Made by a program: the position numbers and the translations under genes. A stretch of 64,000 bases of DNA from Lachnospiraceae bacterium (GTDB taxonomy: Bacteria > Bacillota > Clostridia > Lachnospirales > Lachnospiraceae): positions 1 to 64,000 of the forward strand of contig JAZQQB010000009.1 of assembly GCA_045628865.1 (NCBI GenBank), in the 5' to 3' direction. Every line of letters begins with the position of its first letter. Position 1 is the stretch's first letter. Below the pieces are notes generated by a model that worked only from the letters and a program-made list of their open reading frames with translations, ran no database searches and was not told where the DNA came from. Shown in pieces: positions 43,285 to 51,493 of the stretch.

Positions 43285-44499
43285 ATGGTTAGTGTACAGG
43301 CAATTGCAGTAACAAGAGAAATTGAGAATCTTTCACCAATACAGATGAATGATTCTCTTACAATATTATCAGGCAAGTTTGGTGGGACTTGTTATGCAAA
43401 GGAAGGGTATGAAACCATCAAGACTCAACCAATTGAGAAAGCATTATCCAGAGCTGAGAATACAGCAAAGAGCGGACACCATTCTGTTTATCAGCATGGT
43501 TGTGTTACTATGGAAGTAAAGTGTTCGAAGATGCTTGCAATGCTTTTAAACTCTATTGGTATTTCCAATACATCTGAAAAAAGTGCGAGATATACAAAGA
43601 TGCAGCCGAAAAGTGCGTTAGAAGAAAAACTGTATTACAAGTGGCATGATATTTTTGTAAAATTGATCAATGAAGAATATCAGGACACCTTTACAGAAAA
43701 AGAAGTCGATAAGTTAGCATTTGAAAATGCAAGATATATGATTTCTGTATTTACACCAACTTCAATGGTATATACTTTACCATTTAGAAATATTTTCTAC
43801 GTACTTGATTGGTGTGAGGGAATGATTGAAAATCTGTCAAAGTTAGAAGGGGGCTTTAATCAAAAACTTAGAGAAGAGTTGATAGAGCTTGTAGATGCAC
43901 TTTCTGGTGTGGTTGGAGATAAGAGAAACTTTCATGATAATAAAAAAGAGCATTTTCGATTTATGCCTTATCAGGCAACTGGTGAGTTAGAGGATGATTC
44001 CTTACCTTATTATGGAGATGTGTATACTTCAAATTATCTGGCGTCCTTTGCATGTATTGCCCAGGAGCAGCGTCATAGAACACTTCGCGTTAAGATTAAT
44101 TTTTCTGGAAAAGATGCAGAGGAATATGGTTTCTATGTTCCTGAGATGATCAAAAATACGGTGTATGAACAAGGTTGGATTGAAGATTTACGTTCTGTGA
44201 AAGAATACTATCCTCAAGCAACATTGTTATTTGTCACAGAGCAGGGTATTTTTGAGGATTTCCAGTTAAAGTGTAAGGAACGTATGTGTGGACGTGCGCA
44301 GCTTGAAATTATGAAGTTAAATGAATGGATGACTGAACAGTTTATGGACCATAAAGAATGTCTATCAAGGGCTAATCAGAAGAGGTTGGAGTGTATGACA
44401 CCAAATGGGGATGTATGTCCAAGATGTATGTTCAAGGACTTTGCCTGTCAGGAAGGTTGTAAATGGGGACCTAAGGGTGCACTTAACAGATTGATTTAA
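43285..44499 (+). CDS. divergent ThyX-fold (flavin-dependent thymidylate synthase-like) protein with C-terminal Cys-rich extension
   Basis: SGHHSVYQHGCVTMEVK aligns to ThyX H.SV.EH/FTFHVK; SNTSEKSARY aligns to S.NE.SGRY; canonical RHR absent at expected site but RHRx8S occurs ~200 aa later; C-terminal CxxGxxCxxC...C...C cluster. Confidence 0.5.
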   Translation: MVSVQAIAVTREIENLSPIQMNDSLTILSGKFGGTCYAKEGYETIKTQPIEKALSRAENTAKSGHHSVYQHGCVTMEVKCSKMLAMLLNSIGISNTSEKSARYTKMQPKSALEEKLYYKWHDIFVKLINEEYQDTFTEKEVDKLAFENARYMISVFTPTSMVYTLPFRNIFYVLDWCEGMIENLSKLEGGFNQKLREELIELVDALSGVVGDKRNFHDNKKEHFRFMPYQATGELEDDSLPYYGDVYTSNYLASFACIAQEQRHRTLRVKINFSGKDAEEYGFYVPEMIKNTVYEQGWIEDLRSVKEYYPQATLLFVTEQGIFEDFQLKCKERMCGRAQLEIMKLNEWMTEQFMDHKECLSRANQKRLECMTPNGDVCPRCMFKDFACQEGCKWGPKGALNRLI

Positions 44500-44642
44500 A
44501 TTGAATGGGGACGAGAAATATTTCTCGTCCCCAACGTCTTCTATGACATTTTAGAATTAAAAATGTATATTTCAGAGGTTATCCCTTTTTCTTTATAAGG
44601 GATTTGATATGATTGCTATATCAAGAAGAAAGGAAACAATGA

Positions 44643-45386
44643 ATGGAAATTAGTCTCATATTTTGTATTACAGTTGTTGTAGCATTATTGATTTGTATTT
44701 CAATTTTTGTTCGAATGCTGAAGAATTTGAGAAATGATTACGATACGGTGATTGCCAGCTATCAGAATCTAGAAATACTAAATCAGACCTTAAGAGCTCA
44801 GAGGCATGATTACATGAATCATCTTCAAGTGGTGATCAGTATGATTGAGCTAGAGGAATACGATAATCTTAAAGATTATTTGGAACCAGTTTATCAAGAT
44901 ATTCAGAAAACGGGAAAAGCACTGAAAACTTCTAAGCCAGCAGTCAATGCTTTGTTGGCAGTAAAAGCCAATGAAACAAAGACAAAGGGAATTGATATGT
45001 ATCTTCAAATCAAATCGAATTTAAAGGAACTGCATATTCCTGATTGGGAGCTTTGCAAGGTATTATCTAATATTATTGATAATGCAGCCACGGCATTAGA
45101 TGGAAGTCAGAAAGAAAAAAAAGAGATTATTGTAGATGTAACAGAAGACCAGGATAGATACATTTTTGAGATATCCAATAACGGACCCAAAATTCCAGAT
45201 GAAATGCAAAAACAGATATTCCAATATGGAGTAACTTCTAAAAAAGAAGAGGGACATGGAATAGGGTTAGCCATTGTTGATAAGGTAGTGAAAGATTATC
45301 ATGGAGAAATTAAGCTTTCTTCGGATGATAAAGAAACAAAATTTATCGTTGTTTTTGATAAAAAGACAGGAGGTGAAAGCAAATGA
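44643..45386 (+). CDS. small membrane-anchored GHKL sensor histidine kinase (SpoB_a/DcuS-like H-box RHDYMNHL)
   Basis: one N-terminal TM, H-box, GHKL ATPase N/G boxes. Confidence 0.7.
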   Translation: MEISLIFCITVVVALLICISIFVRMLKNLRNDYDTVIASYQNLEILNQTLRAQRHDYMNHLQVVISMIELEEYDNLKDYLEPVYQDIQKTGKALKTSKPAVNALLAVKANETKTKGIDMYLQIKSNLKELHIPDWELCKVLSNIIDNAATALDGSQKEKKEIIVDVTEDQDRYIFEISNNGPKIPDEMQKQIFQYGVTSKKEEGHGIGLAIVDKVVKDYHGEIKLSSDDKETKFIVVFDKKTGGESK

Positions 45387-45856
45387 ATACATTTGAAACC
45401 ATCGGATTGATTTTATTGATTTTAGGTTTGATTCTGGTTTTCATTGAAATGCTTTTACCGGGCTTCGGTGCACCGGGAATATCGGGTGCCATCTGCCTGG
45501 TTGTGGGCATAGGAATGATGACGAAAACATTGGAGCAGACGTTGACACTTGCCATTATTGTAGTGGTGGCAATTGCTGTGATGATGACCATTGTCGTTTT
45601 GTTTTTTCATCGTGGACGAGATCGATCGCCAATTAAGTTACAGGAGAAGATGGAAGCTCCAGAGGGATTTTTAAATGAGTCAGATATTAAGTATCTAGTT
45701 GGTAAGGAAGGTGTTGCATTAACCGATTTAAGACCAGCAGGAAAATGTGATATTGATGGTATAACCTTTGATGTAAGATCAGAGGGGCAATACATCAACA
45801 AGGGATCAGTTATCAAAATTGTTCGAGTTGAAGGAAATACATTGATTGTTAAATAG
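45383..45856 (+). CDS. NfeD-family membrane protein (YqeZ-like, OB-fold C-terminus)
   Basis: hydrophobic N-terminus plus C-terminal beta-rich domain; 4-nt overlap with upstream HK. Confidence 0.7.
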   Translation: MNTFETIGLILLILGLILVFIEMLLPGFGAPGISGAICLVVGIGMMTKTLEQTLTLAIIVVVAIAVMMTIVVLFFHRGRDRSPIKLQEKMEAPEGFLNESDIKYLVGKEGVALTDLRPAGKCDIDGITFDVRSEGQYINKGSVIKIVRVEGNTLIVK

Positions 45857-45878
45857 AGCATGATAAGGAGTGAGGATA

Positions 45879-46871
45879 ATGGAAATTAAGATAGCGATTA
45901 TTTCAGTAGTTGCATTGGTTTTGTTATTGTTTTTTACATTTGTACCAGTAGGATTGTGGATTTCAGCAATTGCATCAGGAGTTAAGATTGGTATTTTTGA
46001 CCTAGTTGGAATGAGACTTAGACGTGTTAGACCATCTAGCATTGTACTTGCATTGATCAAGGCAACTAAGGCAGGATTAACCTTAAAAGCGAATCAGTTA
46101 GAGGCACATTATTTAGCTGGAGGTAGTGTAGATCAGGTAGTAAATGCATTGATTGCTGCAGAACGTGCAGGAATTCAGTTGTCATTTGAAAAAGCATCTG
46201 CAATTGATCTTGCCGGTAGAAATGTTTTTGAAGCAGTTAAGATGAGCGTAACACCAAAGGTTATTGAAACTTCTGTAATCTCAGCAGTTGCAAAAGACGG
46301 AATTGAATTGATGGTAAAAGCAAGAGTTACTGTTCGAACAAATATTGACAGATTGATCGGTGGTGCTGGTGAAGATACAGTTCTTGCTCGAATTGGTGAA
46401 GGTATTGTTACTACAGTAGGTTCTGCACAGACTCATAGTGAAGTGTTGGAGAATCCAGATGAAATTTCAAAGGTTATTCTTCAAAAGGGATTGGATGCAG
46501 GTACTGCATTTGAAATCATTTCTATTGATATTGCTGATATTGATATTGGAAGAAACGTTGGAGCGAACTTATTAAGTCTTCAGGCTGAGGCAGATAATAA
46601 GATTGCACAGGCAAGAGCTGAGGAAAGACGTGCAATGGCGGTTGCATTAGAGCAAGAAATGAAGGCCGATGTAGTAAAAGCAAAGGCAGACGTTGTCAGA
46701 GCTGAAGCAGAGGTTCCTAAGGCACTTGCAGAAGCACTTAGAAATGGAAATATTGGTGCAATGGATTACTATACAATGAAAAATGTTATTGCTGATACAG
46801 AAATGAAAACTGGAATTCAGAATGCAACAAATGCCTATGCCAGCAACAAAGAAAATGACAAGAGAGAATAA
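45879..46871 (+). CDS. floA: flotillin-like protein FloA (UPF0365/YqfA family, SPFH)
   Basis: MEIKIAII...[29 protein letters not shown] strongly resembles YqfA/FloA N-terminus. Confidence 0.8.
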
Positions 46872-46888
46872 TAAAGTAGGTACTAGTA

Positions 46889-47635
46889 ATGATCAAAGTT
46901 ATGGTGATTGAGGATGAACCAGAAATCAGAAGATTGCTTATAAAAATGATAGAAAGAAAGGAAGGCTTCACAGTTGTCTGTGAGGCCGATTCCAATATGC
47001 AGGCAGTTTCTCTTTTTACTGTGAATCGTCCACAGGTTGTTTTTGTAGATGTGGATTTAAATGGGGAAAATGGATTAGAGTGTGCAAAAGTTTTGACTGA
47101 AATCGATCCAAAGGTAAAGATTATTTTTGCAACTGCACATAGTGAATATATGGCTAATGCATTTGAAATATATGCATTTGATTATTTGTTAAAACCATTC
47201 AAAATTGAGCGAATCATGAAAACTCTTTCCAAAATTGAAGAGATGAATCTGGCAGCTGAGAAAGAAGGAAATGATTCATTGGTGCAGATCTCTGCGAAAA
47301 GTGACGAAGATGATAAGTTATTGATTAAGGGAAAGGAGCAGGTCTTTTTCATAGAGAAAAAGGATATTGTTTTTGTGGAGCGTGAAAACAGTGTTACTAA
47401 TATTATAACTTTGGAAGACTCTTATCATACCTCTACATCCTTAAGTGATTTAGAGGAAAAACTTCCAGAGAATCAGTTTATGCGCTGCCATAAATCTTAT
47501 ATTATCAATGTGAAAAAAATCAGTTCTGTAGAGCCATATGGAAGATGGACCTATGTGGTTCACTTTAAGGGTATGAAAGAAACAGCATTGATCACACATG
47601 AAAAGTATAATGAGATTAAGGATCGATATTTGTAA
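46889..47635 (+). CDS. LytTR-family response regulator
   Basis: receiver domain (VDVDLNG) + C-terminal LytTR domain. Confidence 0.8.
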   Translation: MIKVMVIEDEPEIRRLLIKMIERKEGFTVVCEADSNMQAVSLFTVNRPQVVFVDVDLNGENGLECAKVLTEIDPKVKIIFATAHSEYMANAFEIYAFDYLLKPFKIERIMKTLSKIEEMNLAAEKEGNDSLVQISAKSDEDDKLLIKGKEQVFFIEKKDIVFVERENSVTNIITLEDSYHTSTSLSDLEEKLPENQFMRCHKSYIINVKKISSVEPYGRWTYVVHFKGMKETALITHEKYNEIKDRYL

Positions 47636-47703
47636 TTGTTCAGAGCTATGCGCATGGATTTGAAATAGTTACCGTTATATATGACAAATAAAATAATAGG
47701 GAT

Positions 47704-47731
47704 AAAAAAGAGTGCGAAGCACTCTTTTTTT
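47704..47731 (+). terminator. strong rho-independent terminator
   Basis: agagtgc-gaa-gcactct + 7 T. Confidence 0.75.
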
Positions 47732-50428: not shown

Positions 50429-51493
50429 TTATAGATATGGTTCCAAAATAACATGCTTAGGCGCAGCACTAACCGGAATACTGGCATCCATAGCATACGG
50501 ATTATTATCGGTATATGGATTATCTGCATATGGATTATCTGCATATGGATTATCGGTATGCTGCTGATTATATGATGCTTCTACACCAGATAAAGCTGGG
50601 TGAATTAAATATGCAGGCATTTTTTCTTCGTCATCTAAGTTTAGAAAAAATTCATCAACATCATCGGGTCTTTCATCAGGTTGTTCCCAACTGTTAGTTA
50701 GAAGCTGATTTGATTCAGATGCATTTAAAACCCTTGGCCCTTGCGCCATCTTATTGGATTCGAACTGATCGGAATAGGATCTGGAGATGGAGTCAACTGA
50801 TATAGAAGATATATGATGAAACAGATCTTTATAACCGTCTAGCGATGAGGTTTGAACTGCGTTTTCAGTTTCGTGATTACCAACAGCTTCCTGATAGGCA
50901 TTATATTCTTTTAGGATAATATTGTACGCATATTCGTAACGCTTAATATTGTAAAGCCGGATTCGTTTGGAAGAACACCTTTTCTGCTCTTTCACACTAT
51001 GCTTATTTCGTGGAGAAATTGGCATTCCATTATAAAGTTTTTTTTCAAGGTTATCAAATTTTAAGATAATATCACCAACATCAAAGAGAGAATCATAAAA
51101 GCTGCGGTCAACAAAGTGAGAATTCAAAGTACGGATTGGAAAGCTATAATGCAATACACCATGTATTCCCTGAAAGATATGAACACGATGTCTGGTAACA
51201 ATAAAATAACTGTTTCGATAATTCAACATACCACGAATCAAAGTAATACAAAAATGAGTGAAAGGGATCAAATTTATTATTAAAATTGTAGTGGCAACTA
51301 TAGGATTTTTGAATAAGCCAAAATGTGTTGTGCCTGTAAGAACAACAAAATGATAGAATTCAAATGCCAATAATAATAAAAGACTTAATAAGCTTTTGTT
51401 AAAGATACTTTCTATAAGTGTAACTGTTTTATCTGGTTTCCCTTGCCATAAAATCTTTTCCTCTGGAGCAATTTCAGAAAAATAGTTGTACAT
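50429..51493 (-). CDS. membrane protein with bPH2 (DUF304, YdbS/YdbT-like) domain and low-complexity C-terminus with DNPYA pentapeptide repeats
   Basis: ILWQGKPDK...2 TM...YFIVTRHRVHIFQG bPH2 pattern; C-terminal DNPYADNPYADNPYTDNNPYA. Confidence 0.55.
   Translation of the reverse strand: MYNYFSEIAPEEKILWQGKPDKTVTLIESIFNKSLLSLLLLLAFEFYHFVVLTGTTHFGLFKNPIVATTILIINLIPFTHFCITLIRGMLNYRNSYFIVTRHRVHIFQGIHGVLHYSFPIRTLNSHFVDRSFYDSLFDVGDIILKFDNLEKKLYNGMPISPRNKHSVKEQKRCSSKRIRLYNIKRYEYAYNIILKEYNAYQEAVGNHETENAVQTSSLDGYKDLFHHISSISVDSISRSYSDQFESNKMAQGPRVLNASESNQLLTNSWEQPDERPDDVDEFFLNLDDEEKMPAYLIHPALSGVEASYNQQHTDNPYADNPYADNPYTDNNPYAMDASIPVSAAPKHVILEPYL
50495..50557. repeat. ~4 tandem copies of 15-bp unit atatggattatctgc (coding, encodes DNPYA repeats on minus strand)
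   Basis: seen directly in sequence. Confidence 0.8.

Follow-up and report, generated by a model that had tools for sequence, protein, structure and literature searches.

The function of bacterial flotillins and their tie to signalling are still debated, and the existing evidence joining them to histidine kinases comes from co-localisation and pull-downs between the products of unlinked genes in Bacillus and Staphylococcus. In Bacillus subtilis both flotillin operons, yqeZ-yqfA-yqfB and yuaF-floT-yuaI, belong to the core sigmaW envelope-stress regulon (PMC3498285). Here we describe a different arrangement in a 64,000-nucleotide stretch of DNA from a Lachnospiraceae bacterium (positions 1 to 64,000 of contig JAZQQB010000009.1, assembly GCA_045628865.1; hereafter the window), in which nfeD and floA lie between the genes for a minimal histidine kinase (HK) and a LytTR response regulator (RR), behind a promoter element that contains a candidate operator. 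Judged from comparative sequence data, this HK-NfeD-FloA-RR cassette is co-inherited across Clostridia.

Four closely packed open reading frames (ORFs) on the forward strand, at 44643-47635, encode the HK, NfeD, FloA and an RR composed of REC and LytTR domains; the order and positions agree with those predicted in the initial annotation, which was made from the sequence alone. The overlap it reported between the HK stop and the nfeD start is an ATGA, with a ribosome-binding site (RBS; GGAGG) lying within the 3' end of the HK gene, and because the two codons overlap or are no more than 6 nt apart in most Lachnospiraceae loci, the junction suggests that HK and nfeD are translationally coupled. 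The NfeD-FloA and FloA-RR gaps are 13 nt and 17 nt. A GC-rich, terminator-like hairpin (GGGGACGAGAAATATTTCTCGTCCCC; 44506..44533, no strand assigned), located directly 3' of the stop codon of a thyX-like gene, is the 5' boundary of the unit, and the window sequence contains no ORF between it and the HK gene. At the opposite end, the strong terminator noted previously corresponds to an intrinsic terminator (AAAAAGAGTGCGAAGCACTCTTTTTTT; 47707..47731, forward strand) with a predicted RNA fold of -16.8 kcal/mol (z = -5.16; none of 200 shuffles was equally stable). The hairpin and this terminator delimit the four genes as one predicted operon. An Rfam search of the leader and operon identified no riboswitch or leader family, and a PADLOC search found no defence system among the proteins, the sole match being to a generic GHKL (25 bits).

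The unit resembles the B. subtilis yqeZ(nfeD)-floA(yqfA)-yqfB operon in that NfeD and FloA are encoded together, with a YqfB-like third gene in related cassettes whose kinase has two transmembrane (TM) helices (two-TM cassettes, below), and in that expression would be under membrane-anchored envelope-stress signalling, as it is under sigmaW/RsiW in Bacillus (PMC3498285). It differs in having an HK and a LytTR RR encoded inside the operon as its regulator, whereas Bacillus uses an extracytoplasmic function (ECF) sigma factor and anti-sigma factor encoded elsewhere; in addition, the cassette NfeD is short and lacks the protease domain, and the Lachnospiraceae form found in the window lacks yqfB. 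The statement in the initial annotation that NfeD/FloA are normally a stand-alone operon holds for Bacillus, with the reservation that the operon there is also under an envelope-stress regulator, sigmaW (PMC3498285).

The HK (247 aa; 44643..45386, forward strand) had been described as a minimal one-TM GHKL kinase upstream of nfeD, and this is borne out by its profile matches, its conserved catalytic residues and an AlphaFold2 model. Scored against Pfam and NCBIfam profiles, each with its family cut-off (as were the other window proteins), it contains a Spo0B-type SPOB_a dimerisation and histidine phosphotransfer (DHp) domain (PF14689, 60 bits) and matches HATPase_c (PF02518, 72 bits) and HATPase_c_5 (PF14501, 63 bits). 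A single N-terminal TM helix (residues ~3-25) with ~2 extracytoplasmic residues is followed by the DHp domain with His55 and then by the GHKL domain. H55, N143/D146/N147, NNGP179-182 and GHGxGL204-209 are invariant in an alignment of 22 homologues, as are the TM residues C18 and L15, which are at least 85% conserved among 81 cassette kinases. In the model (pLDDT 81), residues 2 to 69 make up one uninterrupted helix that spans the TM segment and DHp helix 1, and no further input domain is seen. The closest solved structure by sequence plus fold is the AgrC kinase module (6e52), at only ~21% identity, and BceS of the BceAB-S complex (8g3a) is among the structural matches; an HPK10-like catalytic core, as in AgrC/ComD kinases, is a possibility. 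Assignment as a DcuS/CitA/MalK kinase, a family with periplasmic PAS/Cache and cytoplasmic PAS domains, was rejected, as NF008298, whose cut-off is 520, reaches 110 bits and its match is confined to the DHp and catalytic (CA) domains. The HK family is large and consists of ~240-249-aa proteins (852 clusters at E < 1e-5), and the window HK is 70% identical to relatives in Agathobacter-labelled metagenome-assembled genomes. Intramembrane-sensing HKs are reportedly defined, following Mascher, by a TM-only input region, an extracytoplasmic linker of less than 25 aa and no cytoplasmic input domain. The window HK with its one TM helix and ~2 external residues fits this description, as do its two-TM relatives with a loop of ~12-15 aa, and the kinase is probably an intramembrane sensor; the classical definition presumes two TM helices, so the window HK is an extreme case.

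NfeD (157 aa; 45383..45856, forward strand) matches PF01957 (61.5 bits; cut-off 29.1) and PF24961 (45.2 bits; cut-off 26), and has three TM helices and a C-terminal OB-fold partner-binding domain. No ClpP-like protease domain was found among the Pfam and NCBIfam matches of its 157 residues, and it was not classed with the long YqeZ/STOPP type. FloA, a flotillin of the SPFH family (45870..46871, forward strand; PF12127, 508 bits; NF010186, 513.5 bits versus a cut-off of 393), is 72-92% identical to its cassette homologues. Its ORF begins at GTG 45870, which overlaps the RBS AAGGAG (45865-45870), whereas ATG 45879 sits 8 nt past the RBS and is for these reasons more likely to be the true start. 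Searched by sequence against the PDB, neither FloA nor NfeD retrieved a solved relative. The RR (46889..47635, forward strand), encoded by the last gene of the operon, contains REC (PF00072, 86 bits) and LytTR (PF04397, 82.4 bits; cut-off 22.6) domains, and its acidic pocket (EDE8-10), phospho-acceptor region (FVDVD51-55) and K102 are conserved in 74 sequences. Its best NCBIfam matches, the LytR equivalog (153 versus a cut-off of 375) and BtsR (128 versus 246), are under their cut-offs and were rejected. The Pfam scores of both proteins exceed the cut-offs, and together HK and RR look like a cognate pair whose catalytic residues are intact.

A scan of one genome per GTDB species identified 142 HK relatives, and the best 80 loci, all from distinct species, were analysed. 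These are mostly from Lachnospiraceae, with Agathobacter, Roseburia, Butyrivibrio, Faecalimonas, Acetatifactor, Parablautia and Candidatus Blautia labels, and a few are labelled Oscillospiraceae or Negativibacillus. The order HK-NfeD-FloA-RR is complete with tight or overlapping junctions in 73 of the 80, six more are truncated at contig ends, and the remaining one (L059) has no RR; NfeD was found in 77. The genes flanking the window cassette (thyX-like and glgP) are missing from all 80 loci, and all-against-all clustering of ORFs revealed no recurrent neighbour beyond the four genes, the largest extra cluster comprising nine loci and the other large clusters being antisense shadow ORFs. Because the arrangement recurs in every informative locus of the 80 species genomes while the flanks differ, it is evidently far beyond chance. 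In L059 (5471-7965) an OmpR-type RR, a HisKA kinase and a Bce-like ATP-binding cassette (ABC) ATPase follow FloA in place of the LytTR RR, and the repeat element upstream of the kinase is kept. A membrane-protein gene is present between floA and the RR gene in L046 (8259-8735), L052 (8168-8926), L056 (8227-8991) and L057; three of these loci encode a product of ~252 aa that has multiple TM helices, and the remaining lineage encodes one of 158 aa.

The linkage evidently predates the Lachnospiraceae form by far. When 1.84 billion representative proteins were searched with a profile, 616 kinase clusters were returned at E < 1e-30, most of them of 280-300 aa with ~45 aa of extra N-terminus that constitutes a second TM helix joined via a short loop. 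One of these (P0132) is encoded in an HK-NfeD-FloA-small ORF-RR(LytTR) array, and two others (P0123 and P0172) are followed by NfeD before the contig is cut. Of 80 loci obtained by scanning metagenomes with the two-TM alignment, nine are too short to be informative; among the other 71, the order HK-NfeD-FloA-ORF-RR is complete in 38 and HK-NfeD(-FloA) is cut by contig ends in 20, such that 58 of 71 are linked. Cultured members of the family include Clostridium drakei, C. tagluense, C. thailandense, C. omnivorum, Maledivibacter and Haloimpatiens, and the five-gene HK-NfeD-FloA-YqfB-RR form is present in C. drakei (CP020953; two-TM kinase of ~290 aa) and Maledivibacter. Separation of the HK and RR genes from floA in relatives, which the initial annotation had named as one case against its proposal, is thus not seen in the 79 complete or contig-cut species-genome loci, nor in the 58 linked two-TM loci, C. 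drakei or Maledivibacter, and conservation with both kinase types supports, at the genetic level, its proposal of a signalling circuit coupled to NfeD/FloA. One lineage has a permuted order, HK-NfeD-RR-FloA-small ORF, seen with P0200 and in L084-L086; in the latter the cassette is directly downstream of recA, the small ORF has 98 aa, and the element is still between HK and nfeD.

The small ORF between floA and the RR gene encodes a low-complexity, probably disordered protein of 60-200 aa in 39 metagenome loci (L094-L171), and also at L082 7543-7899 and L173 7598-8005. Conservation is limited to its C-terminal ~22 residues, [LA]xxAIIxSEI[LIV]G[KRP]PxxxRRRx[WF] (...AIIxSEIlGkPkxkRRrrW). A scan of these ORFs against a local copy of Pfam gave no match, and the C. 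drakei product has a precomputed weak match to Pfam YqfB (PF27722). Six-frame regular-expression searches showed the YqfB-like C-terminal motif to be absent from the window and all 80 Lachnospiraceae loci, and the window lineage has evidently lost both kinase TM1 and yqfB. The Bacillus-type core nfeD-floA-yqfB is, on this evidence, bracketed in Clostridia by a kinase gene on its 5' side and a regulator gene on its 3' side.

Other kinase relatives occur in different contexts. A 463-aa polytopic relative (P0224) has no nfeD-floA linkage, P0250 is an orphan between pur and his genes, and the more distant P0265 (284 aa) is part of an agr-like locus (L091 3733-6460; GCA_050286925.1) with the order RR(LytTR)-158-aa protein-HK-AgrB. 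This last locus suggests an origin of the flotillin-linked kinases in Agr-type systems. Among solved kinases the cytoplasmic module of AgrC is the nearest, and this distant relative adjoins AgrB; the system probably descends from an Agr-like two-component system (TCS) whose polytopic sensor has been reduced.

A search for direct repeats of the LytTR type within 44520-44640 had been suggested in the initial annotation, and they are found at 44544-44578 (forward strand) in a cassette-specific promoter element (TGACATTTCAG-N9-TGTATAATTCAG) that comprises two copies with a 21-nt period, R1 (TGACATTTTAG; 44544-44554) and R2 (TGTATATTTCAG; 44564-44575, with AGG following). These can be written as 9-bp direct repeats with a 12-bp spacer, ACATTTTAG-N12-ATATTTCAG at 44546-44575, of the general type ACATTTCAG-N12-ATAATTCAG. 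The geometry is that of the published LytTR consensus, which has 9-bp repeats and a 12-bp spacer (PMC2766830), and is near that of the streptococcal ComE sites, GCAnTTnAG-12n-ACAGnnGAG followed by an extended -10 (PMC12943804); we propose that the element is a candidate binding site of the LytTR RR. An extended -10 (TGATATGAT; 44605..44613, forward strand), with its hexamer at a fixed spacing of 32 nt past the end of R2, probably constitutes an RR-dependent promoter, from which transcription is predicted to start near 44620. The consensus TG[AT]CATTTCA[GA]-N9-TGTATA[AT]TT[GC]AGAGA is present upstream of the kinase in 76 of 79 Lachnospiraceae-type loci, and in 75 loci it is followed 10 nt further on, gapless and at fixed spacing, by an invariant T within TTG (-35) and then TGnTAnnnT.

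Scored with a position weight matrix (PWM) derived from 75 non-redundant loci, the window site reaches 37.4 bits and is the unique match of at least 15 bits in the 64 kb. When further sites were sought in the window and 1.49 Mb of loci, one extra was found (23 bits, on the opposite strand inside purC of L039), which is treated as chance. In the two-TM cassettes the same PWM finds the element in a different position, between the kinase stop and the nfeD start, in 45 non-redundant loci (25.8 bits in C. drakei), and there too its spacing to TTG and TGnTAnnnT is fixed. Its location between HK and nfeD in the two-TM form and before HK in the Lachnospiraceae form points to nfeD-floA and the RR gene as the conserved regulated unit, and the promoter is predicted to drive nfeD-floA-(yqfB)-RR and, in the Lachnospiraceae form, HK too. 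In L018 and L048 the element is 1.5 kb upstream, ahead of an inserted gene, a position that fits an element marking the start of the operon. The inserted gene (L018 4550-5869; L048 4530-5996) lies between the element and the kinase gene, would be co-regulated, and encodes a lipoprotein, which in L018 has 439 aa and no recognisable domain and in L048 has 488 aa and a papain-like QGxCWAY motif.

The reading that we favour, by a small margin over even chances, is that the cassette is a single autoregulated operon placing FloA and NfeD under a dedicated TCS, i.e. a self-contained membrane-stress module that provides flotillin on demand. Phosphorylated RR would bind the repeats (~-78 to -45 from the predicted start) and activate the extended -10 promoter, raising NfeD/FloA and the level of the RR itself in a positive feedback. 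As the kinase has neither an extracytoplasmic nor a cytoplasmic input domain, in its one-TM form here or with two TM helices and a ~12-15 aa loop in its relatives, it presumably senses inside the membrane, responding either to bilayer perturbation or to how far the NfeD-FloA complex, a product of the same transcript, is assembled or occupied. NfeD/FloA would then feed back on the kinase, a role that LiaF, PspA or BceAB have in their own systems, and the module would be the clostridial counterpart of the sigmaW-dependent induction of yqeZ-floA-yqfB in B. subtilis under membrane stress. Physical coupling of the kinase to flotillin is putative, and the kinase is possibly gated by NfeD/FloA. A more tentative version, to which we give clearly less weight, has the NfeD-FloA complex as the input module of the kinase, the HK TM helix reading its assembly or load state, or the lipid order under its control; the LytTR RR would then adjust nfeD-floA transcription to give a homeostatic flotillin-sensing circuit. 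Should this be true, the circuit would be the first signal-transduction pathway dedicated to a bacterial SPFH protein, and a natural system for asking what flotillins sense or do.

Scaffold effectors in an autoregulated locus, a kinase without an input domain, and an accessory membrane protein that feeds back on the kinase are features of LiaFSR-LiaIH and PspF-PspABC. The working model resembles both, with LiaFSR-LiaIH as the closest architectural analogy, but the cassette has no LiaF/Toastrack, LiaI/LiaH or PspA homologues, its RR is of the LytTR rather than the NarL type, and feedback by NfeD/FloA is putative. LiaF (Toastrack) and BceAB-type ABC transporters are absent from the cassette and do not recur beside it in the 80 loci. 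BceRS-BceAB is similar in that the input of a minimal kinase comes through a membrane partner complex (putatively so here), and different in that the partner is an ABC transporter and the RR is of the OmpR type.

Several points weigh against the favoured reading. The repeats can also be read as a near-consensus sigma-A promoter (TGACA-17-TATAAT), and R2 is systematically more TATAAT-like than R1, such that binding of the RR might bring about repression instead of activation, or the element might be a promoter that has a specific discriminator. Thirteen of the 71 informative two-TM kinase relatives are orphans lacking NfeD/FloA, and the kinase fold is thus not strictly flotillin-dependent. Motif scans covered the flanks of each locus (+/-5-6 kb) and one 64-kb window, and further regulon members are possible elsewhere. 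RR binding, the transcription start and the inducing signal are predictions, and direct contact between HK and NfeD/FloA is putative.

If the kinase needed a flotillin platform to oligomerise and signal, the real regulon could lie elsewhere and the operon repeats would serve autoregulation only, an explanation that we regard as rather unlikely. B. subtilis provides the precedent, its flotillins acting as scaffolds for the sensor kinases KinC, PhoR and ResE (the pairs being FloT-KinC, FloA-PhoR and FloT-ResE; PMC4409396), and the cassette is similar to these in linking a flotillin with histidine-kinase signalling; there the tie is physical and functional between unlinked genes, whereas in the cassette it consists of conserved gene linkage and a shared promoter and is known from sequence. 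The apparent translational coupling of HK and nfeD and the restriction of the site scan to local flanks also favour such a helper role. However, in the ancestral-looking two-TM form the kinase gene is outside the regulated unit and nfeD-floA is right behind the repeats, which points to nfeD-floA being a target and not a helper, and a second site was not found in 1.55 Mb. It is less likely again that the element is a plain housekeeping sigma-A promoter accompanied by a second promoter, at which the RR does not act, with the TCS and flotillin genes merely sharing a transcript. The element can indeed be read as a -35/-10 pair, ATGACA-17-TATATT, that scores 10/12, and TGTATAAT is its best-conserved block. 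Nonetheless, ~14 bits of information fall outside the sigma-A hexamers, and the 14 conserved positions there score +12.8 bits at cassette sites versus -16 +/- 8.4 at 440 other sigma-A-like sites in 1.55 Mb. TT(C/G)AG is repeated at the 21-nt period, L011 and L012 have three repeat copies with 21-nt spacing, and R2 is R1-like and lacks TATAAT in L011, L012 and L142. These features argue that the element is more than a sigma-A promoter, and it tracks the LytTR RR cassette, occurring essentially nowhere else in the scanned DNA.

Quorum sensing of the Agr/Com kind, in which the kinase would detect a secreted peptide and flotillin would be one quorum-controlled output, is improbable. The cassette shares with AgrCA/ComDE an apparently AgrC-like kinase core, a LytTR RR, 9-bp repeats with a 12-bp spacer before an extended -10, and putative positive autoregulation; the catalytic core is closest to AgrC, the distant relative P0265 sits in an RR-HK-AgrB locus, and the repeats resemble ComE boxes (PMC12943804). 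AgrC and ComD, however, have six to seven TM helices, compared with one TM helix and ~2 external residues, or two and a ~12-15 aa loop, in the cassette sensors; the cassette contains no peptide, AgrB or ComAB genes, its cargo being flotillin and NfeD, and no agrB, peptide precursor or ABC exporter gene recurs beside it in at least 150 loci. The initial annotation had itself raised the possibility of a generic AgrC/ComD-type peptide sensor with an adjacent peptide gene; with a single TM helix and neither agrB nor a peptide gene next to it, the window HK is not of this multi-TM type, although its catalytic core seems AgrC-like. Finally, a fortuitous local rearrangement that placed an unrelated TCS around nfeD-floA can be set aside, with next to no probability left to it: the arrangement is kept across 80 species genomes with unrelated flanks and also in a second, deeply diverged kinase subfamily with two TM helices, and mere adjacency is refuted by this conservation.

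The initial annotation considered the arrangement undescribed, and full-text literature searches for flotillin, FloA or NfeD with LytTR, histidine kinase, two-component or Lachnospiraceae likewise found no description of the cassette; 'flotillin' and 'LytTR' occur together in the searched literature only in unrelated contexts. TCSs, LytTR autoregulation and stress-induced flotillin are known already, and it is the dedicated, widely conserved TCS-flotillin module and its operator that appear to be undescribed. In well over a hundred Clostridia, including abundant gut and rumen Lachnospiraceae (Agathobacter, Roseburia, Butyrivibrio and Blautia-like) and cultivable Clostridium species, a kinase, a regulator, NfeD and FloA have become fixed together in a single unit defined by its promoter. 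This indicates that stress-inducible flotillin is a conserved theme served by different regulators, sigmaW in Bacilli and a TCS in Clostridia. With a defined promoter and a candidate operator, reporter assays can be used to seek the inducing signal, and control of a bacterial flotillin becomes directly testable, with a minimal kinase for which the membrane or the operon partners are the only possible input. The comparative series of one-TM and two-TM kinases, cassettes with or without YqfB, and promoters before or after the kinase gene offers a means to dissect the role of each part.

The orphan two-TM kinases (~298 aa) are found in high-GC metagenome loci including L139, L147, L160 and L172, and may represent a different signalling role for the same scaffold; in L139 and L160 the orphan gene follows dnaE and a gene for a 244-aa sigma-factor-like protein. 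In the window, the thyX-like gene 5' of the hairpin (43285-44499, forward strand) encodes a 404-aa protein with a partial and weak ThyX/Thy1 match over residues 33-173 (PF02511, 54 bits; TIGR02170, 27.7 bits versus a cut-off of 87.9). It has a long C-terminal extension with a Cys-rich end (CxxC-type motifs) and does not resemble a canonical ThyX. A reverse-strand ORF at 50429-51493 codes for a 354-aa protein that has no Pfam match and contains N-terminal hydrophobic segments and C-terminal DNPYA/DNPYT repeats.

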